Assembly: GCA_041398785.1 (NCBI GenBank)
Contig: JAWKUA010000009.1
Span: forward strand, 210,629-274,628
Reading direction: 5' to 3'
Length of the DNA: 64,000 bases
DNA from: Planctomycetaceae bacterium
GTDB taxonomy: Bacteria > Planctomycetota > Planctomycetia > Planctomycetales > Planctomycetaceae
Position numbers and translations under genes: made by a program
The notes under the pieces: model-generated
What the model was told of the DNA's origin: nothing
Databases searched by the model: none
Seen by the model: only the letters and a program-made list of their open reading frames with translations
Shown here: positions 5,837 to 50,300 of the stretch, one piece after another
Layout: each line of letters starts with the position of its first letter
Numbering within the stretch: the first letter of the stretch is position 1

Positions 5837-5904
5837 GGCGCACGATTCTACCGTGGTCTCACAGCGGAAACGAGCCTGTGGAATTCTCGCTGATCCGAAA
5901 TGAA

Positions 5905-7176
5905 TCATGCCTTGTCCGAGATATCTGAGCGACACCAGCCGCCCGCCCAGTGAATTTGTTCGACTGCGGCGTAGGCGGCAACTTTGGCATCCGCGATGGT
6001 TGCTCCGGTCGCCGTGACACCCAAAACACGCCCGCCGGCGTTCAGAATTCGACTGTCCTTTTCGACGGTTCCGGCGTGAAACACTTTCACATCGGGCATG
6101 GCGTCCGCTTCGTCAATGCCGGAGATCTCGCGGCCCTTTTCGTAGTCTCCCGGATAGCCTTCTGATGCCATGACCACGCACACAGCCGGACGAGGATCCC
6201 AGTCCAGGCCTTCCAGTTCCGCAAGCCGACCATCGGCCGCCAGAGAAAGCACCTGCGCCAGATCGGACTTCAGTCGCATCAGCACGGGTTGTGCTTCCGG
6301 ATCTCCGAAGCGAACGTTGTATTCAAGCACTTTCGGCCCCTGGTGCGTCAGCATCAGGCCGGCGTACAGGATGCCGGAAAACGGACAGCCGCGGTTCTTC
6401 ATCGCGCTGACTGTTGGAATCAGGATGCGCGTAACGATCTCGTCCATCATGGGCTCGGTGACCGATGGAGCCGGGCTGTAGGCTCCCATGCCGCCTGTAT
6501 TGGGGCCTCGATCGCCGTCCAGTGCTCGTTTGTGATCCTGGGAAGTTTCCAGAGGAATGATCGTGTCGCCATCGATGATGGCCAGAATGCTGGCTTCCTG
6601 ACCTTCCAGGCATTCTTCGATCACGATCTTTCGCCCCGCGGTACCGAATTCGTCGTGCTTCAGCATCGACGTCGCGGCGTCGATCGCTTCGCGTCGGTTG
6701 CGGCAGACATAGACCCCCTTGCCGGCAGCCAGCCCGTCCGCTTTCACAACCAGCGGCAAGTCGTGTTCGACGGAATCCAGATAACTGAGCGCCGGCTGCA
6801 GACTTGTAAACGCTTTGAACGCGGCTGTCGGGATTCCGGCCTTCTTCATGATCTCCTTGCAGAACGACTTGCTGCCTTCCAGCTGCGCGGCGGCTTTCGA
6901 CGGTCCGAAGATGCGAAGCCCCGCGCTGCGGAATTCGTCCACGATGCCGGCCACAAGCGGAGCCTCCGGGCCGACAACCGTCAGGTCGATGGAGTTCTGT
7001 TTCGCGAAACTCAGCAGACGGCTGATGTCGTCGGCCGCAATACTGACGTTTTCGCCATCCTGTGACGTTCCGGCGTTGCCTGGTGCGCAGTACACGCGTT
7101 CCACGTTGCGCGACTGAGAAAGCTTCCAGACCAGAGCGTGTTCGCGGCCACCCTGACCAATGACGAGAATCTTCAT
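5905..7176 (-). CDS. purD: phosphoribosylamine--glycine ligase
   Basis: MKILVIGQGGREHALVWKL... N-terminus (internal ATG, complement at 7174-7176). ATP-grasp body and the ...DPEAQPVL... C-terminal PurD signature are present. ORF track gives 5905..7218. Confidence 0.95.
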   Translation of the reverse strand: MKILVIGQGGREHALVWKLSQSRNVERVYCAPGNAGTSQDGENVSIAADDISRLLSFAKQNSIDLTVVGPEAPLVAGIVDEFRSAGLRIFGPSKAAAQLEGSKSFCKEIMKKAGIPTAAFKAFTSLQPALSYLDSVEHDLPLVVKADGLAAGKGVYVCRNRREAIDAATSMLKHDEFGTAGRKIVIEECLEGQEASILAIIDGDTIIPLETSQDHKRALDGDRGPNTGGMGAYSPAPSVTEPMMDEIVTRILIPTVSAMKNRGCPFSGILYAGLMLTHQGPKVLEYNVRFGDPEAQPVLMRLKSDLAQVLSLAADGRLAELEGLDWDPRPAVCVVMASEGYPGDYEKGREISGIDEADAMPDVKVFHAGTVEKDSRILNAGGRVLGVTATGATIADAKVAAYAAVEQIHWAGGWCRSDISDKA

Positions 7177-33487: not shown

Positions 33488-34963
33488 TCATTCCCGATCG
33501 AATCCGTCGTCCGGTCGCGCAGACTTGCTGGCCTTCAGTTTTTCTCGGACGACCGGAATCTCGTCGGCGACGTCCCTGGGCGACGGCTGCACCCAGTCGG
33601 GGAAGTGGTATCCCAGCCCGTGTTCACACAGCTTTGCCGTCGTGACGGTTCCGTCTTTGATGTCGAACAGTTCCGGATAGCGTTTCGCCCAGCGGGCGCT
33701 CGGTCCGGGACAATACTGCCGGGCATTTCCTTCGACGGCGGCGACTCCGGGAATATGTGCGGCCAGACTGCACGAATGCAGGAACGAAGCGCCGGGACAC
33801 GTCAGATCCTGCACGCAGAGATACATGCCGAACTTCTGAGCCGCAGCGGCCGCCAGCAGCGATTCCGTCTGACCCTTGCAGGCTTTCAATGCGACTCCCG
33901 AATAACCCAGGTCGCGACAGTCGGTCAGCGCTTCGTAGTCGACCAGCGCTTCATCGATCACGACGGGCTTCAGCTTCGCCACATCGTGCATCCTGATCGC
34001 GGACGCGGCTTTCAGGTCGCGACTGGTTGGCTGTTCGATGTATTGGATCCGTTCAAACGCGGCGGGTGACTTCTTCTGCAATTGCTTCAGAAAATCGACG
34101 ACGTACTGCGCCGAATCACATTTTTCATTGAAATCACAGCTATACGCCCACGACTGGCAGCCCCGAGCGGCCTGAGCCGCCGCGGCCACGCGTTCGACGG
34201 ACAATACGCGGTCCAGATCCCACTTCAGATCATCACCCGCGAGCTTGATTTTCAGATGAGTCAGCCCGTCGGCGGCGATCCATTCACCCAGCGTGACCGG
34301 CAGCCCGTCGTTTGGACGGCTGCTGACGTCAGCATCGGTCAGCGGATCAAGTGCTCCTACCAGATGATACAGCGGCAGCACGGCAGTCGGCTGACGCAGC
34401 GTGTATTGATCCAGATATTCGCCCTTGAACTGGTCATCCAGAAAGTGGCTCAGGTCGACGTTGCAGAATCGTGAAGTCAGCAGGTCAAAGCTGTTGGCCC
34501 GATGAACGCGTCCAAAGGCGTCATGCAGCGCTGCGTCGATCGGACTGGTGGCCACAAGCTGGGCCAGTGGAGGCACCGGTTCGGCGATATCGCAGGCCGA
34601 CGAAACCTTCCGTGCCAGATGATAGAACTCGGCCGCGACGTTGTACTGGATTTCGACCGGATGTCCGTATTCGGGGTAGCTGGCGAACAATTCGCCGCCG
34701 CGTTCGGCATAGGCTTTCACGGCTCGTTCCGTATCCGCGGAATCAACGTCTGTCGCAGGCCAGGCCCAGACGTTTCCCACAGGCATGCTGCCGTATCCGC
34801 TGGCGGAATGGCCGTCGCGAGTCTCCACGGTCACGACGGCGTTGATCAGGCTGGTTTGGTCGACAATGCGTCCGCCGAATTTCAGCGGAGTTCGAAATTC
34901 CACCGGTTCGAACGACACTTCCACATTCAATATGCGAATGTCGGAAGCCTTCACCTTCCCCAT
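33488..34963 (-). CDS. enolase-superfamily protein (mandelate racemase / muconate lactonizing enzyme family)
   Basis: N-terminal capping domain ILNVEVSFEPVEFRTPLKFGG. Barrel residues LKIKLAGDD (K-x-K), CDFNE, YIEQP, CVQDL. Confidence 0.7.
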   Translation of the reverse strand: MGKVKASDIRILNVEVSFEPVEFRTPLKFGGRIVDQTSLINAVVTVETRDGHSASGYGSMPVGNVWAWPATDVDSADTERAVKAYAERGGELFASYPEYGHPVEIQYNVAAEFYHLARKVSSACDIAEPVPPLAQLVATSPIDAALHDAFGRVHRANSFDLLTSRFCNVDLSHFLDDQFKGEYLDQYTLRQPTAVLPLYHLVGALDPLTDADVSSRPNDGLPVTLGEWIAADGLTHLKIKLAGDDLKWDLDRVLSVERVAAAAQAARGCQSWAYSCDFNEKCDSAQYVVDFLKQLQKKSPAAFERIQYIEQPTSRDLKAASAIRMHDVAKLKPVVIDEALVDYEALTDCRDLGYSGVALKACKGQTESLLAAAAAQKFGMYLCVQDLTCPGASFLHSCSLAAHIPGVAAVEGNARQYCPGPSARWAKRYPELFDIKDGTVTTAKLCEHGLGYHFPDWVQPSPRDVADEIPVVREKLKASKSARPDDGFDRE

Positions 34964-35154
34964 CTGTCCGGGTCCTCAAACGTCTCGAAGTAGAAACTCG
35001 AAGTGATCCAGGCCGCGGTCGCTGACTTGCATAATTCTTCACTCCGCAGGCCGACATCCTGTCATTCAAAGGTCATTCAAACCCGCTCACAGCCTCGTCA
35101 TGAACCAGCGATGTTCGTCAATTCGCAGTACCTGAATTCACCGAACGCCGCAGG

Positions 35155-38826: not shown

Positions 38827-39261
38827 GGTCACATTCACTCCGGGACAACGGTATCTGGCACTGCACGACTGCCGTAAATTACCGAACAGAACTACCGGCC
38901 GCCTCCGGAAGACCGGCCGGTGATTCGGTTTTCTGCTTTTCCAGAAATTGCGCGAACTCCCGGCAATCCGCCGCGTCCTATCCACGGACACCGCGTTTCA
39001 GCCGTCGGCCCGGAACGCGTGCCGTCAAGAATCATTGTCAACAGCGAAAGCCATAGGTCGTGCATTCCCGGACCCGAAATCCCAAAAACCGCCACGGCAA
39101 CTTCGACACCATGCGAAACGAAGGGCATTCCTTCGATCACATCGGTCGCCGGGGCGACCGGATTGCGCGATCGGGTGAGTCTGCCCGCTGGCCGCAGTTC
39201 GGCGGCCTGATACAGAACCACGACTTTTGACTTCCGGCATTCACTGCCACGGCAGCGCCAC

Positions 39262-39292
39262 GCCCGGAGTCACCAATACTCCGGGCTTTTTT
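39262..39292 (+). terminator. strong Rho-independent terminator immediately upstream of the tRNA array
   Basis: cccggagt-caccaat-actccggg (perfect 8-bp stem) followed by cttttttt. Confidence 0.8.
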
Positions 39293-39312
39293 TGTGCGCG
39301 GACAGAATCGCA

Positions 39313-39384
39313 CGGGTCGGTAGCTGAGACGGTTTAGCGGCGGTCTGAAGAACCGCAGACGAGGATTCGAGCGCCTCTCGACCC
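39313..39384 (+). tRNA. tRNA-Phe(GAA)-like
   Basis: Hand fold. Acceptor GGGTCGG/TCGACCC. Anticodon stem GCGGT/ACCGC with loop CTGAAGA. 3-bp D stem. T arm GAGGA-TTCGAGC-GCCTC has a 53-61 A-G mismatch. No CCA encoded. Confidence 0.5.
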
Positions 39385-39451
39385 ACTTTCCGCATGTCCA
39401 TTTCCCCAACGGGTGAGAACGTGCCCAAAGGGTGGATGAAGGGGCACAACA

Positions 39452-39520
39452 TCGCCGACGGTCAAGTGACCAGTGAAGCCTCATAAGCTTCGACAGTCAG
39501 GTGCAAGTCCTGAGTCGGCC
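39452..39520 (+). pseudogene. tRNA-Met(CAT)-like unit with truncated D arm
   Basis: Anticodon arm GAAGC-CTCATAA-GCTTC. T arm TCAGG-TGCAAGT-CCTGA (G at position 55). D arm reduced to GGTC-AAGT-GACC. Acceptor 6/7. Confidence 0.35.
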
Positions 39521-39541
39521 ATTTTCGACAACGAGATCTCA

Positions 39542-39614
39542 AGGGCGCGGTCGTCTACAGGAAGGACACACGGGCTTTCACCTCGTGGACGCCGGTTCGA
39601 ATCCAGTTCGCGTC
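39542..39614 (+). pseudogene. tRNA-Glu(TTC)-like unit with poorly pairing acceptor stem
   Basis: Anticodon arm ACGGG-CTTTCAC-CTCGT. T arm GCCGG-TTCGAAT-CCAGT (one mismatch). No good 7-bp acceptor pairing found by eye. Confidence 0.3.
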
Positions 39615-39639
39615 ACTCATTCTGTTCATCAACTCATGA

Positions 39640-39712
39640 TGGCCTGTTAGTGAAATTGGATATCACGAGACGCTTCGAACGTCTTATTCCAGGTTCGAAT
39701 CCTGGGCGGGCT
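39640..39712 (+). tRNA. tRNA-Arg(TCG)
   Basis: Acceptor GGCCTGT/GCGGGCT (3 G-U). D GTGA/TCAC. Anticodon AGACG-CTTCGAA-CGTCT. T CCAGG-TTCGAAT-CCTGG. Confidence 0.55.
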
Positions 39713-39845
39713 GCTCAGTGCAACCACGATTTACTATTCCCAGTTCCCTGTTGACTACCTCCACACCGATGTGCTCCTGGGAGAGCAGCGAGCTTCCAAA
39801 CCTCGCGGAAGGCGTTCGAATCGTCTCGTCGCTGCTTCTCAACGA

Positions 39846-39916
39846 CAGCCCGGTCGTTCAACGGAAGGACGTCGCTCTGATAAGGCGGAAACGAAGGTTC
39901 GACTCCTTCCCGGGCT
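39846..39916 (+). tRNA. tRNA-Ile(GAT)
   Basis: Acceptor AGCCCGG/CCGGGCT. Anticodon TCGCT-CTGATAA-GGCGG (2 G-U). T GAAGG-TTCGACT-CCTTC. 3-bp D stem. Confidence 0.55.
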
Positions 39917-39989
39917 ATTCAATGACATTGACGGAAACAACTCCAATGCCCACACGACTCAAACGCACGGCCCCTCGAATACCAATTCA

Positions 39990-40061
39990 CGGGCTTGTGG
40001 CAGACAGGAATGCACCCGGCTTTTAACCGGCGCATATGAGAGTTCGAATCTCTCCGGGCCC
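39990..40061 (+). tRNA. tRNA-Lys(TTT)
   Basis: Acceptor GGGCTTG/CGGGCCC. Anticodon CCCGG-CTTTTAA-CCGGC (27-43 mismatch). T GAGAG-TTCGAAT-CTCTC. Paralog of the CTT unit. Confidence 0.6.
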
Positions 40062-40070
40062 ACTGACTTT

Positions 40071-40142
40071 CGGGAAGTGTTGTCGATGGTTCGACAGCCG
40101 TTCTTATAAAGCGGTCCACGAGGTTCGATTCCGCGGCTTCCC
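40071..40142 (+). tRNA. tRNA-Ile(TAT)-like (anticodon UAU)
   Basis: Acceptor GGGAAGT/GCTTCCC. D TGTC/GACA. Anticodon CCGTT-CTTATAA-AGCGG. T CGAGG-TTCGATT-CCGCG (one A-G). Confidence 0.5.
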
Positions 40143-40167
40143 ATCTTGCATGAAGACAAACTCATCA

Positions 40168-40239
40168 ACCGTCGATGGCAGAGCGGCGATGCACCCGGCT
40201 CTTAACCGGACCAACGGGGGTTCGAATCCCTCTCGGCGG
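40168..40239 (+). tRNA. tRNA-Lys(CTT)
   Basis: Acceptor CCGTCGA/TCGGCGG. Anticodon CCCGG-CTCTTAA-CCGGA. T GGGGG-TTCGAAT-CCCTC. Confidence 0.6.
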
Positions 40240-40255
40240 ATTTGGAAATCAGTTT

Positions 40256-40326
40256 TGGCACTGTCGTCTAACGGCAAGATTCCTGTTTTGTACTCAGGAG
40301 ATGCGGGTTCAATTCCTGTCGGTGCC
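40256..40326 (+). tRNA. tRNA-Thr(TGT)
   Basis: Acceptor GGCACTG/CGGTGCC. D GTCT/AGAT. Anticodon CCTGT-TTTGTAC-TCAGG (31-39 T-T). T GCGGG-TTCAATT-CCTGT. Confidence 0.5.
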
Positions 40327-40357
40327 TCTTTGTGAATTCAACAGAGCGATGACATTT

Positions 40358-40428
40358 CGCAGCCGTCGTTCAATGGCAGGACGTCACGTTGCCAACGTGA
40401 GGACGCCGGTTCGATTCCGGTCGGCTGC
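40358..40428 (+). tRNA. tRNA-Gly(GCC)
   Basis: Acceptor GCAGCCG/CGGCTGC. D CGTT/GACG. Anticodon TCACG-TTGCCAA-CGTGA. T GCCGG-TTCGATT-CCGGT. Confidence 0.6.
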
Positions 40429-40448
40429 ATTTGGATGTTTTGAAATTC

Positions 40449-40529
40449 CGGCGTTGCTTCAGAGTGGGATCTGAACGCGGCTGTAACCCGCGTGCCATCC
40501 GGATAAGCGGTTCGATTCCGTACAGCGCC
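40449..40529 (+). tRNA. tRNA-Tyr(GTA), class II long variable arm
   Basis: Acceptor GGCGTTG/CAGCGCC. D TCAG/CTGA. Anticodon CGCGG-CTGTAAC-CCGCG. About 13-nt variable arm. T AGCGG-TTCGATT-CCGTA. Confidence 0.6.
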
Positions 40530-40534
40530 ACTTT

Positions 40535-40576
40535 GTAGATCTGAAATCTGAAATCTCAAATTTGAAATCTCAAATC
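40535..40576. repeat. heptanucleotide tandem repeat (AAATCTG/AAATCTC)n inside the tRNA array
   Basis: agatctgaaatctgaaatctcaaatttgaaatctcaaatcc. Same core family as the repeat at 23151. Confidence 0.8.
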
Positions 40577-40581
40577 CATCA

Positions 40582-40656
40582 TTCCGGTGGAGTCTGTGCT
40601 GGTACAGGCAGGCGGCTGTTAACCGTTGTGTCGCAGGTTCGATTCCTGCCGCCGGA
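40582..40656 (+). tRNA. tRNA-Asn(GTT)
   Basis: Acceptor TCCGGTG/CGCCGGA. Anticodon GGCGG-CTGTTAA-CCGTT. T GCAGG-TTCGATT-CCTGC. Confidence 0.6.
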
Positions 40657-40667
40657 GCTTTTAAGTC

Positions 40668-40748
40668 AGGAGGTCATCCGAATGGTGAGGAAGCGGTTTC
40701 GAAAACCGCCGCGGCTTGTCCGTTGAGGGTTCAAGTCCCTCGGCCTCC
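40668..40748 (+). tRNA. tRNA-Ser(CGA), class II
   Basis: Acceptor GGAGGTC/GGCCTCC. Anticodon GCGGT-TTCGAAA-ACCGC. Long variable arm CGCGGCTTGTCCGTT. T GAGGG-TTCAAGT-CCCTC. Confidence 0.65.
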
Positions 40749-40756
40749 GCTCGTTA

Positions 40757-40827
40757 CACGGACGAAGTGTTATGGCAGCACGCCGGTCTTCCACACCGGA
40801 AGCGGGAGTTCAACTCTCCCTGTCCGT
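40757..40827 (+). tRNA. tRNA-Gly(TCC)
   Basis: Acceptor ACGGACG/TGTCCGT. D GTGT/GCAC. Anticodon CCGGT-CTTCCAC-ACCGG. T GGGAG-TTCAACT-CTCCC. All stems regular. Confidence 0.75.
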
Positions 40828-40858
40828 ATTTGCCGCTGCTCGCGGCGCCAACCACACA

Positions 40859-40929
40859 TTGCCTCATGGTGTAACGGCAGCACCGCAGTCTCTGAAACTG
40901 TGTGATCAGGTTCGAATCCTGGTGAGGCA
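40859..40929 (+). tRNA. tRNA-Gln(CTG)
   Basis: Acceptor TGCCTCA/TGAGGCA. D GTGT/GCAC. Anticodon GCAGT-CTCTGAA-ACTGT. T TCAGG-TTCGAAT-CCTGG. Confidence 0.7.
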
Positions 40930-40980
40930 TCTTTGGAATGAGGAAGGTTCAAGGCAGAAGCGTCAACAGCGTCTGCTCTG

Positions 40981-41013
<33 letters not shown>

Positions 41014-41015
41014 TT

Positions 41016-41100
41016 CGGAAGTCATCCGGCTGGATGAGGACGCAGTCTTGAAAACTGTTGCGTCGGCAACGGCGTTGTGGGTTCGAGTCCCACGGCTTCC
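41016..41100 (+). tRNA. tRNA-Ser(TGA), class II
   Basis: Acceptor GGAAGTC/GGCTTCC. Anticodon GCAGT-CTTGAAA-ACTGT. Variable arm GTTGC-GTCG-GCAAC. T GTGGG-TTCGAGT-CCCAC. Confidence 0.65.
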
Positions 41101-41108
41101 GCATGATC

Positions 41109-41181
41109 CGGTCCCGTAGCATAGCGGCAAATGCATCTGTCCTACACACAGACAATCGTTGGTTCGAGTCCAACCGGGATC
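41109..41181 (+). tRNA. tRNA-Val(TAC), C33
   Basis: Acceptor GGTCCCG/CGGGATC. D GCAT/ATGC. Anticodon TCTGT-CCTACAC-ACAGA (position 33 is C). T GTTGG-TTCGAGT-CCAAC. Confidence 0.6.
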
Positions 41182-41193
41182 AATCAAGACACG

Positions 41194-41266
41194 CAGCACC
41201 GTAGCCCAATGGCAGAGGCGGTCGTTTCAAACACGGCGCAGTGTGAGTTCGACTCTCACCGGTGCT
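41194..41266 (+). tRNA. tRNA with Leu anticodon CAA on a class I (short variable arm) scaffold
   Basis: Acceptor AGCACCG/CGGTGCT, A73. D-loop AATGGCAGA. Anticodon GTCGT-TTCAAAC-ACGGC. Variable arm only 5 nt. T GTGAG-TTCGACT-CTCAC. Confidence 0.5.
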
Positions 41267-41284
41267 ATGGAGACATTTAATAAA

Positions 41285-41359
41285 CGCCCTCGCAGAGCAG
41301 CCAGGAGTGCTCGCCACCCTGTCACGGTGGAGATCACCGGTTCAAATCCGGTCGGGGGT
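41285..41359 (+). tRNA. tRNA-Asp(GTC)
   Basis: Acceptor GCCCTCG/CGGGGGT. D GAGC/GCTC. Anticodon CCACC-CTGTCAC-GGTGG. T ACCGG-TTCAAAT-CCGGT. Confidence 0.7.
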
Positions 41360-41365
41360 GCTTTT

Positions 41366-41440
41366 TGGCACCGTAGCCCAATTTGGCAGAGGCACTCGGC
41401 TTAGACCCGAGACGTTGAGAGTTCGAATCTCTCCGGTGCT
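41366..41440 (+). tRNA. tRNA with Leu anticodon TAG on a class I scaffold (paralog of 41194 unit)
   Basis: Acceptor GGCACCG/CGGTGCT, A73. D-loop AATTTGGCAGA. Anticodon CTCGG-CTTAGAC-CCGAG. Short variable arm. T GAGAG-TTCGAAT-CTCTC. Confidence 0.5.
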
Positions 41441-41457
41441 ATTTGTGAGTTTATCCA

Positions 41458-41525
41458 TGCGGACGAGCCGGTGCTCAGTTGGCTTTCATAAGGCCGACCT
41501 GACGGGATCAACACCCGTGTCCGCG
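41458..41525 (+). pseudogene. tRNA-Met(CAT)-like unit with non-canonical T loop (ATCAACA) and shortened D loop
   Basis: Acceptor GCGGACG/TGTCCGC. D GAGC-CGGT-GCTC (4-nt loop). Anticodon TGGCT-TTCATAA-GGCCG. T ACGGG-ATCAACA-CCCGT. Confidence 0.35.
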
Positions 41526-41665
41526 ATTCTGTTCGTTCGAGACTTGTAGGCTGAGATTTGAGTGTTCCAACAAGGGGCCGCCGGAAGGTCGGACTTTTCC
41601 TTTGCAAGGAAGATGGTGGGGAGCGTTACCCCGTGGCTCCATTTGCGTTTGTGTAATTTGTGTTT

Positions 41666-41751
41666 CGGAGGATAGCCGGATACGGCTTGCCGGGCCGGTT
41701 TGCTAAACCGTGCGGCGTTCGCGTCGTGAGGGTTCGAATCCCTTGTCCTCC
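41666..41751 (+). tRNA. tRNA-Ser(GCT), class II
   Basis: Acceptor GGAGGAT/GTCCTCC. Anticodon CCGGT-TTGCTAA-ACCGT (27-43 C-T). Long variable arm GCGGCGTTCGCGTCGT. T GAGGG-TTCGAAT-CCCTT. Confidence 0.55.
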
Positions 41752-41753
41752 GC

Positions 41754-41829
41754 TGTGGCCGGGTCCGGTGCTGGTTTCCGGAGGCAGTTTGTGAAGCTGT
41801 TTGTCGGCGGTTCGATTCCGCTCGGTCAC
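41754..41829 (+). tRNA. tRNA-His(GTG), no genomically encoded G-1
   Basis: Acceptor GTGGCCG/CGGTCAC, C73. Anticodon GCAGT-TTGTGAA-GCTGT. T GGCGG-TTCGATT-CCGCT. The base at -1 is T. Begins 2 nt after the preceding Ser unit. Confidence 0.55.
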
Positions 41830-41842
41830 CCTCATTGTTTGT

Positions 41843-41915
41843 TGTCCTCGGAGTGTGCAGGATTTGCACGCGACTCTGCGAAGGTCGAAGACCAGGTTCG
41901 ATTCCTGGCGAGGAC
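41843..41915 (+). tRNA. tRNA-Arg(GCG)
   Basis: Acceptor GTCCTCG/CGAGGAC. D GTGT/GCAC. Anticodon CGACT-CTGCGAA-GGTCG. T CCAGG-TTCGATT-CCTGG. Confidence 0.65.
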
Positions 41916-41919
41916 ATTC

Positions 41920-42059
41920 GGTTTAACCGCGACCCCTGGGGGAGCGCTCTGGTATGACGGTTGCGAAGTCCGGCACTGGAAGTCGATTTCATTCAGCGAT
42001 GGCTTTGTTGGTCGCAGTGCCGTCTGTCGGCGCAGCGCTCGCCAGGGCTCGCGGTTAAA
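41920..42059 (+). other. ~140-nt long-stem inverted-repeat element (18-bp outer stem + nested inner stems) between tRNA units
   Basis: GTTTAACCGCGACCCCTGG (41920-41938) pairs with CCAGGGCTCGCGGTTAAAC (42041-42059). Nested pairs GAGCGCT/AGCGCTC and GGCACTG/CAGTGCC around a ~35-nt loop. MITE-like or structured-RNA-like. No coding potential. Confidence 0.6.
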
Positions 42060-42178
42060 CGATGGAAACACGGAGTATCAATGAAAGCTTGATGCTGTCA
42101 GGGCCAGCGGCGCGCCGGACTTCTCGTTCAGAGATCAGCCGCACGTGTCCCGAACATGGGTTCTGAACCGGATGGCAT

Positions 42179-42252
42179 CGAAGTGGTAGCCCAATTGGGT
42201 AGGGCATCAGGTTGCTCACCTGAAGGTTGCGGGTTCGAATCCCGTCCACAGC
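42179..42252 (+). pseudogene. degenerate tRNA-like unit (anticodon loop TTGCTCA, GCT; acceptor mismatched)
   Basis: D arm GCCC-AATTGGGTA-GGGC and anticodon stem TCAGG/CCTGA are intact, as is T arm GCGGG-TTCGAAT-CCCGT. Acceptor GAAGTGG/CCACAGC has 2 mismatches and position 37 is C. Confidence 0.3.
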
Positions 42253-42743
42253 TCCCGTTCGGCTGAAAACCGAACCAACACGAACGCGACTGCGTTCACC
42301 AAAGGCCCGAGGAAGACGAACGATTGTCTGATCTGCGGGTGATGACGTTGCGTCGATCGTTTTGGATTCACGGCAAGTCCGTGAACCCCACGGCGGCGAC
42401 AATGTCCATCACCGCAGCATGTACGGCTCGCCCTGCAGTTCACGGATACCGCGTTCCGAACGTGTGGTTGACTTCGATGGAATCAGATCCTGATGGCCTG
42501 CGGCAACGCGGCTTTCGGTGAGATGACGAGATCGACCGACGCCGCACGTTTCGGTTCGCTCAAGGGATACTCCGCGAGTCACCATGTGATCGGCAGTTGT
42601 GTCGTCTTCCGACGGCTGTTTTCTGCGTTCCGGCGATCCGGATCGTTTACCCCGTGGTCGCAGACCAGGCCGGCTTGAGACTACGTACACGACAGACCAC
42701 GTGGTCTGCGATCACGGGACAAGCGAAGAAGAAAGGCAAGTCC

Positions 42744-43850
42744 ATGTACCCATTCAACCGAATCCGAATCCGCAGCTATGAAGTCGGCCTGGTCTTCCAT
42801 GAAGACGAGTTCCGGGGTCTGCTGCACGAAGGTGGTCACCGGCGATTCGATCCGCTGTACAAGCTGCGTGTAGACGTCGTGTCGAAGCGTGATCCGTGGC
42901 TGCAGCACGACAAACTGGACGTCATCGTCAAGTCGGGATCGCTCGACGGTCACGCGATTGTTGTTGACCTGAAGGACCACCAGCGAGGACTGGTGTGGAT
43001 TGAAGGTCGCTTCAGCCACGTGTTGCCGGCGGGACTGTACGCATACTGGACCGGAGTGAAGGACGTGAAGATCGACATCGTTGATGCTCGATCGGTGCGT
43101 TTCGAACACCCGGATCTGCGAGTCATCACGGCGTCGCCAATGGTGTCGCGCGTGCTCGATGTCTGCACAATCAACCGGCAGAACGTGGGAGTCCTGTTCA
43201 TCGACGGCAAGTACGTCGATACGCTGGCTCCAGGTCTGTATGCGTACTGGAAGGGAACCGGTGACGCGAAGATCGCGGAAATCGACATGCGTGAAACGAT
43301 GGTCGACGTCAGCGGTCAGGAAATCATGACGCTGGACAAGGTGTCTCTGCGCATGAACGCGGCCGTGACGTACCGTGTCGTTGATGCGGTGAAAGCCGTG
43401 TCGTCAACCGACGACGTTCGTCAGGCGCTGTACCGCGAGGTGCAGCTGGCTCTGCGAGCGGTCGTGGGAACTCGTGAACTGGATGCGTTCCTGACAGAAA
43501 AGGAAGCTGTTGCGAATGACATCGAGGAACTCGTGAAGGGGCGCGCAAGTGACCTGGGTCTGGATATTGCTTCGGTCGGAATCCGGGATGTGATTCTGCC
43601 GGGCGAAATGAAGGATCTGATGAACCGGGTGACGGAGGCGAAGAAGGCGGCCGAAGCCAACCTCATCTCACGTCGCGAAGAAACGGCTGCGATGCGAAGC
43701 CAGGCGAACACCGCGAAGGTGCTGGCTGACAACCCGACGTTGATGCGTCTTCGGGAACTGGAAGTTCTGGAAAAGATCGCATCGAGCGGCAAGATGAACA
43801 TCGTGCTCGGCGAAAAAGGACTGGCCGACCGCGTTGTGAACCTGCTGTGA
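42744..43850 (+). CDS. SPFH / band 7 (stomatin/prohibitin/HflK-C-like) domain protein
   Basis: Internal ATG at 42744 with gaaaggcaag RBS-like purine run (ORF opens at 42597). ...LDAFLTEKEAVANDIEELVKGRASDLGLDIASVGIRDVILPGEMKDLMNRVTEAKKAAEANLI... is the typical SPFH C-terminal helical region. Confidence 0.85.
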   Translation: MYPFNRIRIRSYEVGLVFHEDEFRGLLHEGGHRRFDPLYKLRVDVVSKRDPWLQHDKLDVIVKSGSLDGHAIVVDLKDHQRGLVWIEGRFSHVLPAGLYAYWTGVKDVKIDIVDARSVRFEHPDLRVITASPMVSRVLDVCTINRQNVGVLFIDGKYVDTLAPGLYAYWKGTGDAKIAEIDMRETMVDVSGQEIMTLDKVSLRMNAAVTYRVVDAVKAVSSTDDVRQALYREVQLALRAVVGTRELDAFLTEKEAVANDIEELVKGRASDLGLDIASVGIRDVILPGEMKDLMNRVTEAKKAAEANLISRREETAAMRSQANTAKVLADNPTLMRLRELEVLEKIASSGKMNIVLGEKGLADRVVNLL

Positions 43851-43903: not shown

Positions 43904-44360
43904 ATGCGCTGACGGCCGGCTCGGGTACCCGGCGATTTCGCGCCATCAGGCCCGAAACGCCGACACGTGCACTTTCCACACTGGTGTGTCGGCCCGTTTC
44001 GCCTGAAACGCATTTGGATCAACACCCCCATTTACTCGATGAGCCGCGAGCTACGAGCGCGCTTCCCGGCTCACGCCCTGGCGGCGTTTCCGAGCCGTAG
44101 CGGCGACCCGGCTGCATTTTTTCCGTTTTTTTCTGAAAGGATCCGGAAGCTCGCGCATTTCAGATTGTGGGCCGGATTTGGCGACGCCGCCACGTGCGCA
44201 GCAGGATACCGCGTGGCATTCAGCGTCCCGACGCTGCGTTCACCTGAAACGACATCAAGAGTCTGCACCCCCGGCATCAGGTCATTCACACCCGACTCGC
44301 CCGCCGCCAGGCGGCATTACGTTCGGGTTCCTGTCGTGTCCAGAATTGAGGGACGAACCG

Positions 44361-47300
44361 ATGTTCCTGTCTGCGTGGCTGTGCCGAGTGCGTTCCGTGC
44401 TGTTCGACCGAGTCCGTGCTGACGGGAGGTCTTCCGCGGCCTGCAAACGTCGTCGGCAGAGACTCTTCTCATCCGTGCCTTCGGAATCGCTGGAAGAGCG
44501 CCTGCTGCTCAGCGGCGACGGCCTGACAGATCTCGGGCTGTTTGTTGTGCCCGGCAGTCCCGACGAACAGGTCACGCTGAACTTCGAACTGTCCGACCGC
44601 AACGGCGCGTTTCGCAGTGAACTGGGACTGTTCATCGCCGACGACGATTCCGGAGCCGTCGACGGCGTCGATCCCGACCGCAACAAGTACGCTCGCGAGG
44701 CCCTGCAGGACGACAGCCATACCTTGCTGTTCGACCGATTCGATGCGATCGGCGAAACCGAATCGCTGACGGTCCCCGGCGGTTCTCACGTCGCCTTCTA
44801 TCTGATTCAGAACAGCGACTCGCGGCGGTTCCTGCGAAACAACCCGCAGAACCGACTGAATCGCTCGCCGAAGACGTTCTTTTCCGTCACCGAGGCCAAT
44901 CCCGATCACTTCGATCATCTGCGGTCGGAAGATCTGGGCTCCGGCACGTGGCAGTTCGGCTGGGAAGACCTGACCTTCGGCGGCGACCGCGATTTCGACG
45001 ACGTCGTGGTGACGCTGACTGTCGGTGACCTGCCGGGGCCGACAATCCTGACGCCTCCGTCGCCGACGGGAGTCGTCTCGGCGACGTTTACGCTCGACGA
45101 ACGCATGGCGGCGTATCGCAGTGAATTCGGCATCTTCAAAGTCGATGACGAAACCGGACGCATCGGAAATCTGACGCCCGACGACCGCGGCTACGCGCGA
45201 GCCGCGCTGACGTCGGCCTCTCAACTGACGATCTTCGAACGCAACGCTGCCGTCGGTTCTCAGGTCACCGTCGAACTGGAAGCCGACGCCCACTACGGTG
45301 TGTACCTGATTCAGAACTCATCGCTCAGCTACTGGCTGCGCCGCAATCCGCAGAACCGGCTGTGCAATTTCCCGAAGGCGTTCTTCGGATTCGTGGACGC
45401 CAATCCGGACAACTTTGACCACACGCGCTGGGACGAGAACACGATCTTCTGGGAAGACCTGACTCGCGGCGGAGACCGGGACTTCGACGACCTGGTGATT
45501 TCGTTCGAATTCGGAACGTCGACGAACCAACCTCCCGCACTGAACGCAGTCGCCGATCAGACTGTCGACGAAGATTCCACCGCTTCCGTTCAGCTCACGG
45601 CGAGCGATCCTGATTCTGACCCGGCGGACCTGATGTTCTCGCTGGTCAGCGGTCCGGCAACCGCGACGGTCAACCAGACGACCGGGCTGTTCGAATGGAC
45701 TCCATTGGAAGCCGACGGCCCCGGAACGTTTCCGGTCACTGTGCGAGTCGAAGACGAAACCGGACTGTTCGACGAGCTGACGTTCTCCGTAATCGTCAAC
45801 GAAGTGAATCAGCCTCCCGTGCTGGCTCCGATCGGCAATCGAACGGTCGACGAGGAACAAACGCTGACGTTCACGGCATCGGCCACGGACAGCGACCTGC
45901 CGCCGAACACGCTGACGTTCAGTCTCACTAACGCGCCGGCCGGTGCGTCGATCGATCCGCAGACGGGCGAATTCTCGTGGATGCCGTCCGAATCTGACGG
46001 TCCCGGAACATTCGACGTGACGGTCAACGTTCACGACGGAGTCGGCGGCAGCGATTCCGAAACGATCACGATCTCCGTCAACGAAGTGAACCAGGCTCCG
46101 GTGCTGGATCCGGTGGACGATCGTACTGTTCCGGAAAACGGCGTCGTGGCGATTCTGATTCCGGCCACCGACAACGACCTTCCGGCGAACACGCTGACCT
46201 GGTCGCTGATCGGCACCGTTCCGGCCGGAGTCAACATCGACGGCGCGACGGGGCAGTTCAACTGGACTCCGTCGGAAGCTCAGGGGCCAGGCAGCTACCC
46301 GATTACGGTTCAGGTCGACGACGGAGCCGGCGGCAGCGATCAGGTTGCGTTCACGATCACGGTGGAAGAAGTCAATGAAGCGCCGGTACTCGATCCAATC
46401 GGCAACCGGACGGCGGACGTCGACGTCGAACTGACGTTCACGGCGACGGCATCTGATCCGGACATTCCGCCGAATGCGCTGACGTTTTCGCTCGACGCAG
46501 GTGCTCCGGCGGGCGCGACGATTGATCCGGTCACCGGCGTCTTTCGCTGGACGCCGACAACCGCATTCAGCGGACAGGACGTGCCAGTCACCGTGCGAGT
46601 CACCGACGACGGCAATCCGTCGCTGGATGACTTCGAAACGATCATCATTGCAGTCGACCGCTGCGTTTTCGACGACAATCTGACGGGCTGGACGGTGACG
46701 GAATCCGGTGGTTCTGCTACCGGTCGCGGAGGTGTTGTCGCTCAGGACTGCACCGCCGTGCTAACCGAAGGTGATTCCTTTTTTGTCCAGATTCAGACCA
46801 CGTTCGACATCGTCACGACCGATTCTCAACTGTTGCTCAGCTTCAGCGGCCTGACGTTCGACACGACCGATCCGGCGTTCGTCAACGATGCATTCGAACT
46901 GGCTCTGCTGGATCAGAACGGAGTCTCGCTGGTCAGCACGACAGCTCCCGGTCGCGATGTCTTTTTCAACGTGACCGAAGAACTCTCGCCGGAAACCGCC
47001 GCCGGAGTCACGTTCGACGGTGCGACCGTGACCGTGAACCTGTCTGCCGTGCCGATCGGTTCGACGGCCACGCTGGTGGCTCGGCTGGTCAACAACGACA
47101 GCGACACGACGACATCTGTGACTCTGACGGACATGCAGATCACTCCCGGCGCGGCTCCGCTGTTGGTTGCTCCAGAGCCGTCGGGTGGTTCGAGTCAGCA
47201 GGGCTCCGCGCCGCAATCCGGTGCGAACAGTTCGGGCACCGCCGCGGTTCCGCCTGGAATCGTCACCGGTTTGTCCGCTGGCACACGGAATCCGGCCGTC

Positions 47301-50300
47301 AGCACTCCGTCGAACGGCACAGCGTCGTCGAACGGCATTGCGTTCACCGATTCGCCATTACAGGCCGGGGCTGCCGGAGTTCAGTCGCCGACATTCGATT
47401 CCCGCGGCACGGAGTTCTGGATCGGGTTCATGGACAACCTGCTGGAAAGCGGCAACGTGCCGAAGAAGCAGTTGTTCGTCACCGGTGACGTCGCCACGAC
47501 GGGATTCGTGGAGATTCCGGGGCTGATCGACCCGAGCACGTCGGTTCCATTCCGAGCGGACTTTGTTGTGAATCCCGGCGAGGTGACGACGGTCGACCTG
47601 CCGAGTCTCGACAGCCGCGAGGATTCGTTCGACACCCAAACAGACTTCGACGTTGAAGCGGAACTGATCGCCGAAATCCAGGCGCTCGGTGTGCATGTGG
47701 TGACGCAGGATGACGTGACGGTGTACGGCCTGAACCGCGCCGTGAACACGACGGACGCATTCCTTGCCCTGCCCGTCGACGCGCTGGGAACCGAGTACAT
47801 CAACCTGGGCTACAACAACGGCTCGCGACTGATCTCCAGCACTCCGAATACCGAATTTCTGGTGGTCGCCACCGAAGATGACACTGTCGTCACGATCGTG
47901 CCGGGAGAAGGATCGTTCAGCGTCGAATCGAACCTTGCCGCGATCGTCCGTCCATCTGGGACCAGCGGCCTTGGCTACACGCGGAACAACGGTACCGACA
48001 TTGGAACTCTGCTGCTGGACCAGTCCGGCACACACACGATCACGGTTGACGCGTTGCTGGAGGGTTACGCCGGCACGTATACGTTCGAACTGCTCGATTT
48101 CGCCACCGCCGCGACGCCGATCAATTTCGGCGAAACCGTCACCACGACGCTTCCGACCGGTCGCGAAGCCCGCGTGTTTTCGTTCGGCGCCACTACCGGC
48201 CAGCGGATCTACTACGACGCAATCAGTCCCGGCGGCCCCACCACGACAGTCCGCCTGGTTTCGCCCAGCGGCGTCATCACAGCCCTCAACACAAACAACG
48301 ATTTTCCCAACCCGCTCCAGACCACAACGACGCTTGCTCCGGAAACCGGTACCTACTACGTGCTTGTCGTTGGCGAAGGGGATGCCGCTTACGACTTCTC
48401 GTTCCGGATGCTTGACCTGGAGACTGCCCCGCTGCTGCCGTTCGGCACGGAAGTGACCGGCACGATGCCGCTCGGCCGTGAGACGGATGTCTTCCGTTAC
48501 AACGGCACCGCCGGCCAGCGAATCATCTACGACGGATTCGACCCAAACGGGAGCCTCGTGACGCTCGATTTGTGGGATCCGGGCATCACGCTGCTGTCGC
48601 GAACGAACGCGTTCGCCGATCTGGATCCCCGGACTCTGCCGGAAGACGGCGAATACTTCGTGACTCTGGCGAGCGGCACATTCGGTCCGCAGGCGAGCTA
48701 CGGTTTCCGCATGTTCGACGTCGCCGATCTGCCCGTCCTGCCGCTCGGCACCAGCGTCACGGGAACGTTCGGAGACGGCCGGGCTGAATTCTTCCGTCTG
48801 CCTGCCGGGCCGGCTCAGGCCGCTGCATTCAGCAATATCACCGTCACTGGCCGAATCCAGATCGATGTGTTTGATCCGTCGAACCGCAGAGTCGCAACCT
48901 TCTCGAACGGTGCCTTCGACGCGCGACTGGCACAGGAAGGCGATTACGTCGTTCGCTTGCGCGGGGTCGGAATTCTGGACAGCGGCACGTTCGACTTCCA
49001 GGTCGACCTGACCGATGACGCGCTCGTCGCCAAATCCGGACTGAACACCGAAACAACGCTCACAATCAATGCTGGTGAAACCGCGACGTATGACTTCACG
49101 GCACCGGCCGGAACACCGGTCATCCTCGATGCCCGCGATACCGTCAATGAGAACCTGCGAGTTCGCATTTTCGATCCGGACGGTGTGCTGGTTGTCGGTG
49201 GAGTTTTCGGTCTTAACGAACTCACCGATTCAGGTCCGTTCTTCCTTGAAAAATCCGGCACGTACACGCTCTCGGTCGTGGGTGACACCGCTTCGGCCGC
49301 CGGCAGCTACACGTTCCAGATCCTCGACCTGCAATCCGGTTCGACGCCGATCAGCTTCGACACGATCGTCTCCGGCACGCTTCCGACCGGTCGCGAAGCC
49401 GTTGCGTTCTCTTTCGACGGCACGGCCAATCAACTGGTCGCATACGACGGAATTGCCCCCGGTACGACCACGATCGCCACGTACGACGAAAACCTGAATC
49501 GCGTTGACGGCGTCTTCGGCAGCCTTGCTGAACGGGACGGCGGCAACAACCTGATCCGGACCGGAAAACACTACGTCGTACTGCAGGGCGTGCAGAACAC
49601 TGCCGCCGACTTCGCGTTCCGCATTCAGGACGTCAGCGCCGCCCCCGTCATCAGTCTCGGCGAAGTGATCTCCGGAACGATTACTCCCGCGCGCACCGAA
49701 CAGCACTTTCAGATCGACCTGACCGCGGGGCAGAGGCTCCTGGTGGACGGGCTCGACGACGACACAGAACGCGTGCTGCTGCAAATCACCGACCCCGGCC
49801 GCTTCACGTTTTACAGTGGCACCGCCGATCAGAACGGCGACTCATCAACCACGTTCCTGCTGACGGTTCCCCGCACCGCTCGCTATGTGGTCTCCGTGCA
49901 GGGCGACACCACCATTGATCCCGCGGACTTTTCGTTCCGCATTCTCGATCTGGACAACGCGCCGCTGCTGACGTTCGACACGGACATCGACATCACGCTC
50001 AACCCTGGCCGGCAGGCGCAGTTCTTCCGCATCGACGCTGACACCGCCGCCAGCATCGACTTCGACAACATCACCGAAACCGGTATCGGCGGGTTCTTCT
50101 GGCACCTGTTCGACCCCGCCGGACGCAATCTCGGCGGTGACAACAACGGCCGCGACTTTACCGGACGCACATGGATCGAAGGCACCTACCTTCTGGGAAT
50201 CGTCGGTCGCGTGAACACACCGATCGATTTCACGTTCCGAGCCACGCGAACGCCGGACACGCCCGTCACGCCGACCGGCTTCAATTCGCTCGAAACCATC

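Follow-up and report, generated by a model that had tools for sequence, protein, structure and literature searches.

A conserved tRNA array with a candidate attenuator leader upstream of a slipin gene in Planctomycetia

To our knowledge, long arrays of transfer RNA (tRNA) genes are usually seen as cryptic horizontal cargo, and a role has been demonstrated and a regulator is known for the array of Anabaena alone. Here we describe a tRNA array upstream of a slipin gene in a 64-kb stretch of DNA from Planctomycetaceae bacterium (contig JAWKUA010000009.1, positions 210,629 to 274,628; the whole stretch is called the window, and coordinates labelled L### are those of loci from relatives) and compare it with the systems described so far. 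A tRNA array unit is defined by at least 20 tRNA genes at a density of at least two per kb (Tran et al. 2016, PMC4758250), and an L-array by co-oriented, co-transcribable genes and a length far beyond that of arrays grown by accretion (Santamaria-Gomez et al. 2021, PMC8421152). L-arrays supply supernumerary tRNAs (PMC8421152) and have elsewhere been described as horizontally spread (PMC8421152, PMC4758250). Two surveys list the Planctomycetes as an array-bearing phylum, without analysis (PMC4758250, PMC8421152), and the remark in a preliminary description of this DNA that no such array was known to it from a Planctomycetota-like genome has to be corrected in this respect.

The L-array on plasmid delta of Anabaena/Nostoc sp. 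PCC 7120 is a long one-strand array with 24 units by ARAGORN and 26 in the paper (PMC8421152, PMC10272220). It is silent until translation is impaired, upon which 23 of the 26 tRNAs are aminoacylated; the operonic tRNAs that were tested are found on polysomes, and the array helps survival (PMC8421152). The planctomycete array resembles it in its length and single orientation, in an HNH endonuclease gene of the same family (adjacent to the array in Anabaena), in Leu-CAA, TAG, TAA and GAG units without a long variable arm and, as we propose, in a default silence that would be lifted by translational stress. It differs in being located on the chromosome at a conserved locus and not on a plasmid, in its unit order and in the position of the HNH gene, which is embedded in planctomycete arrays and lies upstream of the Anabaena array, and some of the Anabaena units encode CCA. 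Control is also different, as Anabaena uses the repressor TrcR on direct repeats in the promoter (PMC8421152, PMC10272220) whereas the planctomycete array is preceded by a promoter resembling those of extracytoplasmic function (ECF) sigma factors, a short upstream open reading frame (uORF) and a putative terminator/antiterminator. The array units of Mycobacterium, Acidithiobacillus and Firmicutes likewise have at least 20 genes at two or more per kb, are redundant with the chromosomal set and have a history of rearrangement, deletion and duplication (PMC4758250, PMC5966550, PMC12803027), and in Mycobacterium avium an HNH gene is embedded in the arrays (PMC12803027) as it is in those of the relatives studied here. 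They are found on plasmids, integrative and conjugative elements, phages or at varying chromosomal sites with flanks devoid of synteny, whereas the downstream flank of the planctomycete array is constant across the whole class and its DNA shows no similarity to plasmid or phage arrays beyond single tRNAs.

With about 26 units in 2.6 kb (about ten per kb), all on the + strand and closely spaced, the window has the gene number and density of a tRNA array unit and the structure of an L-array. The scattered distribution of L-arrays, taken as a sign of horizontal transfer, is not seen here and is an evolutionary attribute rather than part of the structural definition; the linked HNH gene is missing from the window and present in at least 22 related arrays. 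We consider it probable that the region is a chromosomal L-array and tRNA array unit in a reduced copy, that is, a second, largely redundant and functional set of tRNAs under the control of an attenuator. Its parts are the following:

39314-41917, + strand: tRNA array proper (ARAGORN, Rfam, comparison with relatives)
39314-39386, + strand: Phe-GAA
about 39453-39521, + strand: CAT type 2 (from related arrays)
39544-39616, + strand: Glu-TTC
39641-39714, + strand: Arg-TCG
39765-39835, + strand: Trp-CCA, non-canonical
39847-39917, + strand: Ile-GAT
39991-40063, + strand: Lys-TTT
40072-40143, + strand: Ile-TAT
40169-40240, + strand: Lys-CTT
40257-40328, + strand: Thr-TGT
40359-40429, + strand: Gly-GCC
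40450-40531, + strand: Tyr-GTA
40583-40658, + strand: Asn-GTT
40669-40750, + strand: Ser-CGA
40758-40828, + strand: Gly-TCC
40860-40931, + strand: Gln-CTG
41017-41102, + strand: Ser-TGA
41110-41182, + strand: Val-TAC
41195-41267, + strand: Leu-CAA
41286-41361, + strand: Asp-GTC
41367-41441, + strand: Leu-TAG
41458-41526, + strand: CAT type 1 (from related arrays)
41574-41641, + strand: Ala-TGC-like, with G3:U70 and A73 (from related arrays)
41667-41753, + strand: Ser-GCT
41755-41831, + strand: His-GTG
41843-41917, + strand: Arg-GCG

ARAGORN reported 24 same-strand units at 39314-42255, 23 of them at 39314-41917 if a terminal element (described below) is excluded. Three further real units overlooked by default ARAGORN, two with a CAT anticodon and one Ala-TGC-like, were revealed by comparison with related arrays, giving 26 tRNA units and one terminal tRNA-like element in total and bearing out the earlier count of about 26 tRNA-like genes. 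The Rfam tRNA model (RF00005) places 17 of the 24 ARAGORN units above its gathering score of 29, at 31-62.6 bits; 16 of these belong to the array proper and the 17th is the terminal element. The three class II Ser units, Ile-TAT and His gave a sub-threshold match to the tRNA-Sec model of the same clan in a permissive Rfam search, Trp-CCA scores 19.9 bits and thereby below threshold, and Tyr-GTA had no Rfam match even at the permissive threshold. None of the array units is followed by an encoded CCA, as had been noted before; since tRNAs outside the array at the related loci lack it as well, its absence is the norm for the group and no sign of decay. Pro, Cys and class II Leu units are absent from the window array, in agreement with the preliminary description, which had also listed Trp and Ala as missing; both of these are present, the latter as an Ala-like unit. 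Its 'Met' is the real CAT unit at about 39453-39521, which is conserved in related arrays. The gaps between annotated units measure 1-83 nt, a single gap of 262 nt precedes the terminal element, and no strong terminator is found inside the array. Its position between an intrinsic terminator (39262-39286) and a gene with an SPFH domain could be confirmed, as could the microsatellites (40539-40576 and 40982-41013) and an inverted-repeat element.

The anticodons of the window read about 73% of the codons in its 18 long open reading frames (ORFs), covering the commonest codons plus the rare ATA (2%), CTA (1%) and GTA (3%), and the full arrays of relatives cover nearly every anticodon. The array is therefore a general anticodon set and not a rare-codon set. 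The earlier description as an accessory and near-complete array is supported; the codon-usage booster considered there does not agree with a set that reads both the commonest codons and the very rare ATA and CTA.

To compare the divergence of units and spacers we used two close relatives, L001, the slipin of which is 97% identical, and L082, a stromatolite-metagenome contig with the whole array. Between the window and L001 the 11 shared units differ at 2.5% of sites and the spacers at 24.4% (Fisher p = 1e-30). For comparison, the divergence of the coding sequence of slipin is 7.5%. Against L082 all 26 units and the terminal tRNA-like element are 0-10% diverged, most units 0-4%, and the spacers 28.6% with 722 gap columns. 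The low-scoring units (both CAT units, Trp and the Ala-like one) are conserved as well as the others and have orthologues in distant arrays. This pattern indicates that the units are under purifying selection and that the array is not a decaying repeat field, and the assignment of at least five units as degenerate or pseudogenes in the sense of decay does not stand, as all units are far more conserved than the spacers. The segments 39387-39543 and 41443-41666 were considered as dead relics and this was rejected, both gaps being occupied by conserved non-canonical units. Overall, the region is very probably a functional and selectively maintained L-array. Some observations on single units speak against it: Tyr, the unit without an Rfam match, is also the most diverged one (9.8%), the window Trp has a disruptive C2xC71 mismatch that is C2:G71 in L082, and bacterial identity rules are broken in Gly, which has A73, and in Gln, which has U73 (compared with the table in PMC9976931).

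To take a closer look at the distribution of the array, we fetched 80 loci from species-representative genomes using the window slipin and scanned them for tRNAs. In many of them a same-strand array of up to 40 units in the unit order of the window is located immediately upstream of the slipin gene, the shared order being Phe-Glu-Arg/Pro-Ile-Lys-Ile(TAT)-Lys(CTT)-Thr-Gly ... Val-Leu-Asp-Leu ... Ser-Arg-His ... Arg-Cys, and array-bearing loci come from Planctomycetales as well as Pirellulales. The sequence upstream of the slipin gene is at least 3 kb long in 56 loci, of which 16 have 20 or more units, 10 have 9-19, five have 3-8 and 25 have 0-2. Because the same array in the same order precedes the same slipin gene in two orders, a recent strain-specific acquisition is rejected: as far as synteny can tell, the array is neither recent nor strain-specific. 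The patchy presence fits repeated loss, and we think it rather likely from these comparisons that an ancestor of about 40 units at the slipin locus predates the split of Planctomycetales and Pirellulales and was trimmed or lost repeatedly. It follows that an array can persist as a chromosomal feature of a whole bacterial class under strong purifying selection. A rearranged array is found in L070, L072, L074, L076 and L078 (metagenome-assembled genomes labelled Planctomyces sp. SH-PL62 or Planctomyces sp.), where the order after Trp is Lys-CTT, Thr-TGT, Arg-CCG, Arg-TCT, Thr-CGT, Arg-TCG, Lys-TTT, Arg-GCG.

The region in front of the first tRNA was compared among 20 arrays, including versions with one and with five units. 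In the window it contains:

39012-39038, + strand: candidate ECF-sigma-type promoter (-35 GGAAC 39012-39016, 16-nt spacer, weak -10 CATTGT 39033-39038)
39111-39230, + strand: leader uORF of 39 codons, stop TGA 39228-39230
39228-39293, + strand: putative attenuator, with R2 (39228-39238) overlapping the uORF stop, terminator R3+R4 (39262-39286) and T-run (39287-39293)

ECF promoters have a GAAC-containing -35 and a CGTC-containing -10 element 16-18 nt apart, and it is by analogy with this general picture that we label the candidate promoter as ECF-type. Of 19 related leaders, 14 have the motif (C/T)GAAC-N15-18-C(G/A)TCTA at a distance of 176-238 nt before the uORF stop, with 0.16 expected from the background density, and the window has GGAAC at the matching distance of 216 nt. 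An ATG-started ORF of 16-100 codons, mostly 26-45, leads to the equivalent TGA in 14 of 15 related leaders, the uORF of L046 starting with TTG. Nine of the 15 related peptides end in LRL, six of those in PLRL, and the related peptides share an M..F/W-R-P/S-S start. The uORF stop codon is contained in a conserved segment (TTGTGACGCTCGGCC), and the module has the same order in all 20 arrays: uORF, stop segment, a spacer of 20-45 nt, a GC-rich hairpin with a T-run and then the first tRNA. In the window the terminator at 39262-39293 consists of a 9-bp stem with seven G-C pairs and a T7 run, and in the 20 leaders its helix is paired in 96.5% of cells. In L033:7929-8035 (Pirellulales) the 3' half of the terminator (CACCGGGTTTTTTGTTGG) is repeated in tandem about five times.

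In attenuators of the trp, his and pheA type, the position of the ribosome on a leader uORF decides between a terminator and an alternative hairpin. The array leader resembles them in its short uORF, its intrinsic terminator and a predicted mutually exclusive hairpin that starts at the end of the uORF. It differs in that no run of regulatory codons was identified in the uORF and no 1:2 pause hairpin was defined here, and in that the genes it would control are tRNAs and possibly the slipin instead of genes for amino-acid biosynthesis. The uORF stop lies within R2 in 20 of 20 leaders, the nucleotides past the stop are conserved, and R2 has its complement in R3, the terminator's 5' arm and loop. 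The resulting R2:R3 antiterminator is 81% paired compared with 21-44% in slid controls, and there is one position at which the three strands covary (A/G/U in R2, U/C/A in R3, A/G/U in R4; U-A-U in the window). When the nascent transcript is folded as far as R3 by minimum free energy (MFE), 19 of 20 leaders adopt the antiterminator, the window forming 10 of 13 pairs. This architecture suggests a translation-coupled attenuation and would be compatible with an array that is off by default and induced by stress.

Alternatively, the hairpin might be the terminator of a small upstream gene, with the array being transcribed from its own unregulated promoter or by leaky read-through and without any translation switch. 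Of the alternatives to our reading this one survives best, although we regard it as unlikely. Several observations agree with it and weigh against a translation switch. The uORF peptide of the window is unlike the conserved ones and L082 has merely an 8-codon ORF at the equivalent TGA, so that translation of the uORF is uncertain in the lineage of the window; in addition, the window attenuator differs from that of L082 by 21.7%, which is the rate of the spacers, and the -10 element of the window is poor (four of six matches). The conserved C-terminal LRL could be a by-product of a constraint on the RNA and not on the peptide. The statistics of the antiterminator are modest, its covariation residing mostly in one column with most columns invariant and two whole-structure measures not surpassing shuffles, and the MFE structure of the full-length leader is the terminator in 15 of 20 cases. 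On the other hand, the distance from the T-run to the first tRNA is 18-87 nt in most arrays and 20 nt in the window (39294-39313), which leaves little space for a separate promoter. The conserved nucleotides past the stop with their complementarity to the terminator arm and the three-strand covarying position also disagree with an independent terminator, as does the fixed place of the module at the 5' end of the array at any array length. We hold the reading of the leader as a translation-sensing attenuator tentatively, at somewhat less than an even chance in general, and with lower confidence still for a switch that would be working in the window's own lineage.

Several units of the array have an unusual structure, among them:

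41195-41441, + strand: two Leu-anticodon tRNAs without long variable arm, flanking Asp-GTC (32-sequence alignment)

With 73 nt (CAA) and 75 nt (TAG) and a variable loop of 5 nt in each, these two units lack the long variable arm of a canonical class II tRNA-Leu, as had been seen before, and they have A73. The short form recurs for CAA, TAG, TAA and GAG in related arrays and in Anabaena, Leu-CAG keeps the long arm in most related arrays, and in the rearranged arrays mentioned above Leu-CAG has the short form too. An alignment of 32 orthologues and paralogues, including three from Anabaena, is paired in 98.1% of cells with a compensatory change at 19 of 20 pairs and an almost invariant A73, and in the D-arm the Leu units of the window (TAGCCCAATGGCAGAGGC) agree with Leu-CAA of Anabaena (TAGCCCAATTGGCAGAGGC). 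For the leucyl-tRNA synthetase of E. coli, A73 is the chief determinant and is required together with D/T-loop contacts, whereas the arm is dispensable (PMC9976931). Pairing, compensatory changes and A73 thus point to functional RNAs that could be leucylated. According to a recent review Leu tRNAs lacking the long arm are restricted to animal mitochondria, and we found no mention in the literature of a class I form of these Leu units.

Of the two CAT units, the first (about 39453-39521) combines a D-loop of 4 nt with the T-loop TGCAAGT and is mismatched at C1xC72, and the second (41458-41526) has the T-loop ATCAACA. Relatives also have two conserved CAT types, in which the D-loop measures 4 nt and the T-loops are non-canonical (of AUCGAUA type and of UGCGACU type), for example at L005:4943-5013 and 5034-5103 and at L011:570-640 and 654-722; the 1:72 mismatch of one type is reminiscent of initiator tRNA. 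Trp-CCA, with A1-U72 and G73, has its orthologues in the Trp units of other arrays; its interpretation as a decayed Pro unit was rejected, L082 carrying both a Trp and a Pro unit. The discriminator bases mostly suit the amino acid of the anticodon (compared with the identity table in PMC9976931), including C73 in His. The most similar pairs of units within the window are isoacceptors with 73-74% identity, the top cross-identity pair has 71% and the median is 60%, which does not agree with the near-identical scaffolds, tandem duplication and alloacceptor shifts proposed in the preliminary description; the D-arm motifs common to window units are a feature of the array tRNA family and found in the Anabaena array, too. 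As a comparative set of conserved tRNAs that break the rules (the short-arm Leu units and the CAT, Trp and Ala units with reduced D and T loops), these units might be useful for the study of tRNA identity.

Such unusual D and T loops in several units, and array scaffolds unlike those of housekeeping tRNAs, might also be expected if the RNAs were made without decoding, as decoys for tRNA-cleaving toxins or defence nucleases or as substrates of tRNA-dependent biosynthesis. Phage tRNAs have been proposed to evade tRNA-targeting defences (PMC10264068, PMC11555353) and mycobacterial arrays have been discussed as anti-defence elements (PMC12803027). However, the discriminators and identity elements (Ala-like G3:U70, Trp A1-U72 with G73, His C73) suit the respective anticodons, which speaks for a charging with the matching amino acid, the tRNAs of the Anabaena array are aminoacylated and on polysomes (PMC8421152), and a near-complete set of anticodons is the pattern of decoding tRNAs. 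We therefore consider a non-decoding role improbable.

Even less probable is a recent mobile or phage-derived array specific to the strain or species, a kind of origin that had been suggested in the preliminary description. It would agree with the horizontal spread of L-arrays elsewhere, with the short-arm Leu scaffold that is shared with a cyanobacterial plasmid array, with the patchy presence (25 of 56 loci with 0-2 units) and with the HNH gene, which is found at:

L005:8130-8723, L003:8264-8857, L011:1616-2209 and at least 19 other loci (relatives only): HNH endonuclease gene, 198 aa, PF01844

At least 22 related arrays carry this gene between their His and Trp units; tblastn found none in the window, from whose lineage (the window, L001 and L082) it was lost. 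Along its full length the protein shares about 30% identity with the HNH protein beside the Anabaena trn operon, and this homology identifies the planctomycete array as a member of an already known class, the L-arrays. The HNH family is common to phages and plasmids as well; five IMG/VR loci with HNH relatives and a 595-kb phage carrying the best HNH match have no tRNAs nearby, so that the family is not exclusive to arrays. Against a recent mobile origin stand the identical locus and order in dozens of genomes of Planctomycetales and Pirellulales, as synteny had been named beforehand as the check and a presence at the same locus across the phylum as the refutation, which is essentially what is found at the level of the class. 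In addition, array and slipin divergence are correlated, slipin identity with HNH identity and with mean unit identity (rho 0.52 each). The flanks contain no integrase, transposase or phage gene and the GC content of the array is near theirs, and in a blastn search of the whole array against plasmid and phage collections matches were found at the level of single tRNAs and no donor. What counts against a vertical inheritance of the chromosomal array is that it rests on synteny and a moderate correlation, and a transfer by recombination in conserved flanks is possible. Given the features common with Anabaena, the array family could plausibly go back to a horizontal transfer in the distant past.

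Slightly less probable again is that the array is the main housekeeping tRNA operon and not an extra set. Strong purifying selection on the units, the large part of codons in the window's long ORFs that they read and the fact that no other credible tRNA is present in the 64-kb window would agree with this. An ARAGORN tRNA-Phe of 92 nt at 34893-34984 (- strand) is located in an ORF of the enolase superfamily (33488-34963), is not supported by Rfam and most likely spurious. However, the array lacks Pro, Cys and several essential anticodons, and without Pro and Cys other tRNA genes must exist. Complete genomes of the relatives L015 (Planctomicrobium) and L062 (Aeoliella) have just 1-3 units at the locus, and a terminator right before the array is unexpected for a constitutive operon. 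In L003 a canonical Val-GAC outside the array (70.1 bits) is accompanied by a divergent Val-GAC inside (52.4 bits), which demonstrates the redundancy directly in one relative; array units in general score about 45-65 bits compared with 70 for this outside gene.

A pseudogene field that decays without present function is the least probable explanation, since, although seven of the 24 ARAGORN units are below the Rfam tRNA threshold, three more escape default ARAGORN and the window array is reduced by about 13 units and the HNH gene compared with L003 and L005 (also lacking the Pro-TGG of the L082 array), with just five units retained in L083 and a MITE-like insertion and two microsatellites inside the array, the units differ by 0-10% against 24-29% for the spacers in two independent comparisons (slipin 7.5%), the odd units are equally conserved and orthologous to equally odd units in distant arrays, and the short-arm Leu cloverleaf is 98% paired with compensatory change in 19 of 20 pairs. 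The insertion has the features of a miniature inverted-repeat transposable element (MITE):

41921-42073, no strand: lineage-specific MITE-like insertion of about 150 nt with 19-nt inverted repeats

Its 19-nt arms are located at 41921-41939 (GTTTAACCGCGACCCCTGG) and 42042-42060 (CCAGGGCTCGCGGTTAAAC), and it is missing from L001 in an otherwise collinear alignment.

Between the array proper and the downstream gene we found two further conserved elements:

42180-42255, + strand: terminal tRNA-like element, Ser-GCT according to ARAGORN (33-locus comparison)
42256-42637, + strand: conserved structured leader RNA of about 380 nt, helices 42305-42616
42750-43850, + strand: slipin (SPFH/Band 7) gene, 366 aa, Pfam PF01145

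The terminal element is present about 390-575 nt upstream of the slipin gene in at least 33 loci, array-less loci included, as in L062:9459-9531 and L055:9448-9518. Comparison of the 33 loci shows 98-100% pairing and compensatory changes in the stems of the D, anticodon and T arms. In the acceptor stem, each of the three outermost pairs is open in 10-23 of the 33 loci, which leaves effectively 4 bp. The anticodon loop has 6-8 nt with at least 20 different triplets among loci; GCT is common to the window and L001, where the next loop base differs. It therefore lacks the 7-bp acceptor stem and the conserved anticodon of a decoding tRNA, and by this comparison it is a tRNA-like structural element and no decoder. 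Thus the third 'Ser' of the preliminary description is no tRNA-Ser. The ancestor of the element appears to have been a normal tRNA gene belonging to the array or locus. It resembles mascRNA of MALAT1, bacterial YrlA and viral tRNA-like structures in keeping D, anticodon and T arms, and with them probably the L-shape, around an unconstrained 'anticodon' and in its location at the junction of two RNA segments; it differs from them in having no sequence or covariance-model relation (YrlA 16.6 bits compared with a gathering score of 69). We regard it as probably a processing site between the array transcript and the slipin leader.

For the leader RNA, RNAalifold gave 46 pairs in eight nested long-range helices, 36 of them with compensatory change; 91.8% of cells are paired compared with 30-43% in slid controls, and none of 500 shuffles reaches the observed value. 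Of 75 slipin loci from Planctomycetales and Pirellulales, 74 gave a single nhmmer match, which was in each case on the + strand and upstream of the slipin gene (for example L071:9505-9900 and L003:9539-9913). No Rfam family was found for it at gathering and E-value thresholds in two genomes, and we propose it as a candidate new cis-regulatory leader or noncoding RNA. The hairpin with a U-run at 42601-42616 was considered as a terminator and rejected, as covariation assigns it to the 3' strand of a long-range helix. The slipin homologues have 366-368 aa and are 70-98% identical across Planctomycetia (Planctomycetaceae and Pirellulaceae). An extended slipin ORF of 417 aa gave no match as a query in the contig search, the real protein having 366 aa.

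Taking these elements together, the following model can be proposed for an attenuator-controlled array. Transcription would start at the ECF-sigma-type promoter about 100 nt upstream of the short uORF, and the polymerase would then meet the intrinsic terminator 20 nt ahead of the first tRNA. R2, which overlaps the uORF stop, would be able to pair with the 5' arm of the terminator (R3). A ribosome at the stop codon would mask R2, the terminator would form and the array would be off; if ribosomes are stalled or scarce, R2:R3 would form and allow read-through into the array. The precursor would be cut to tRNAs, CCA would be added post-transcriptionally and, by analogy with Anabaena, the tRNAs would support translation under stress; at the terminal tRNA-like element the structured slipin leader would probably be separated from the array by processing. 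Such a switch would be a second, mechanistically different and testable design for the control of an array and would explain its response to translational stress. In the most far-reaching version, which is possible and yet on the whole doubtful, promoter, uORF attenuator, array, tRNA-like element, structured RNA and slipin gene would form one ancient, vertically inherited stress operon of Planctomycetia, in which an ECF sigma factor and the ribosome-sensing attenuator respond to faltering translation by inducing slipin, a membrane-scaffold protein, and back-up tRNAs, among them the short-arm Leu units and the CAT, Trp and Ala units with their non-canonical elbows, and the element is an RNase P/Z cut site that releases the regulatory RNA of about 380 nt. 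If true, this would be the first case of an L-array stably fixed in the chromosome as a trait of a bacterial class, and a control by leader-peptide attenuation would be seen for the first time in a tRNA operon. The conserved leader, the short-arm Leu tRNAs and the terminal element with the RNA of about 380 nt do not seem to have been reported so far; the terminal element is the tRNA-like 5' module of this structured RNA, which is widely conserved ahead of slipin genes.

In L082, the closest relative with a longer contig, the slipin gene is followed by two genes for small heat-shock proteins (HSP20; 5389-5856 and 5962-6408), a neighbourhood that agrees with a stress regulon. The flanks of the window are ordinary planctomycete chromosome, with genes for a formaldehyde-activating enzyme (Fae), an ATP-grasp protein, a methyltransferase and a 3347-aa adhesin-like protein. 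A tblastn search with the upstream proteins (Fae, methyltransferase, STAS-like and ATP-grasp) gave no matches in the 80 loci, and the upstream flank is thus not syntenic past the leader. Downstream of slipin, the window has a 151-aa ORF without Pfam match and then the giant adhesin-like gene. The giant ORFs are located at 44178-54221 (3347 aa) and 54343-59874 (1843 aa), and the first of them contains He_PIG, Big_9, cadherin-like and IgGFc-binding repeats.

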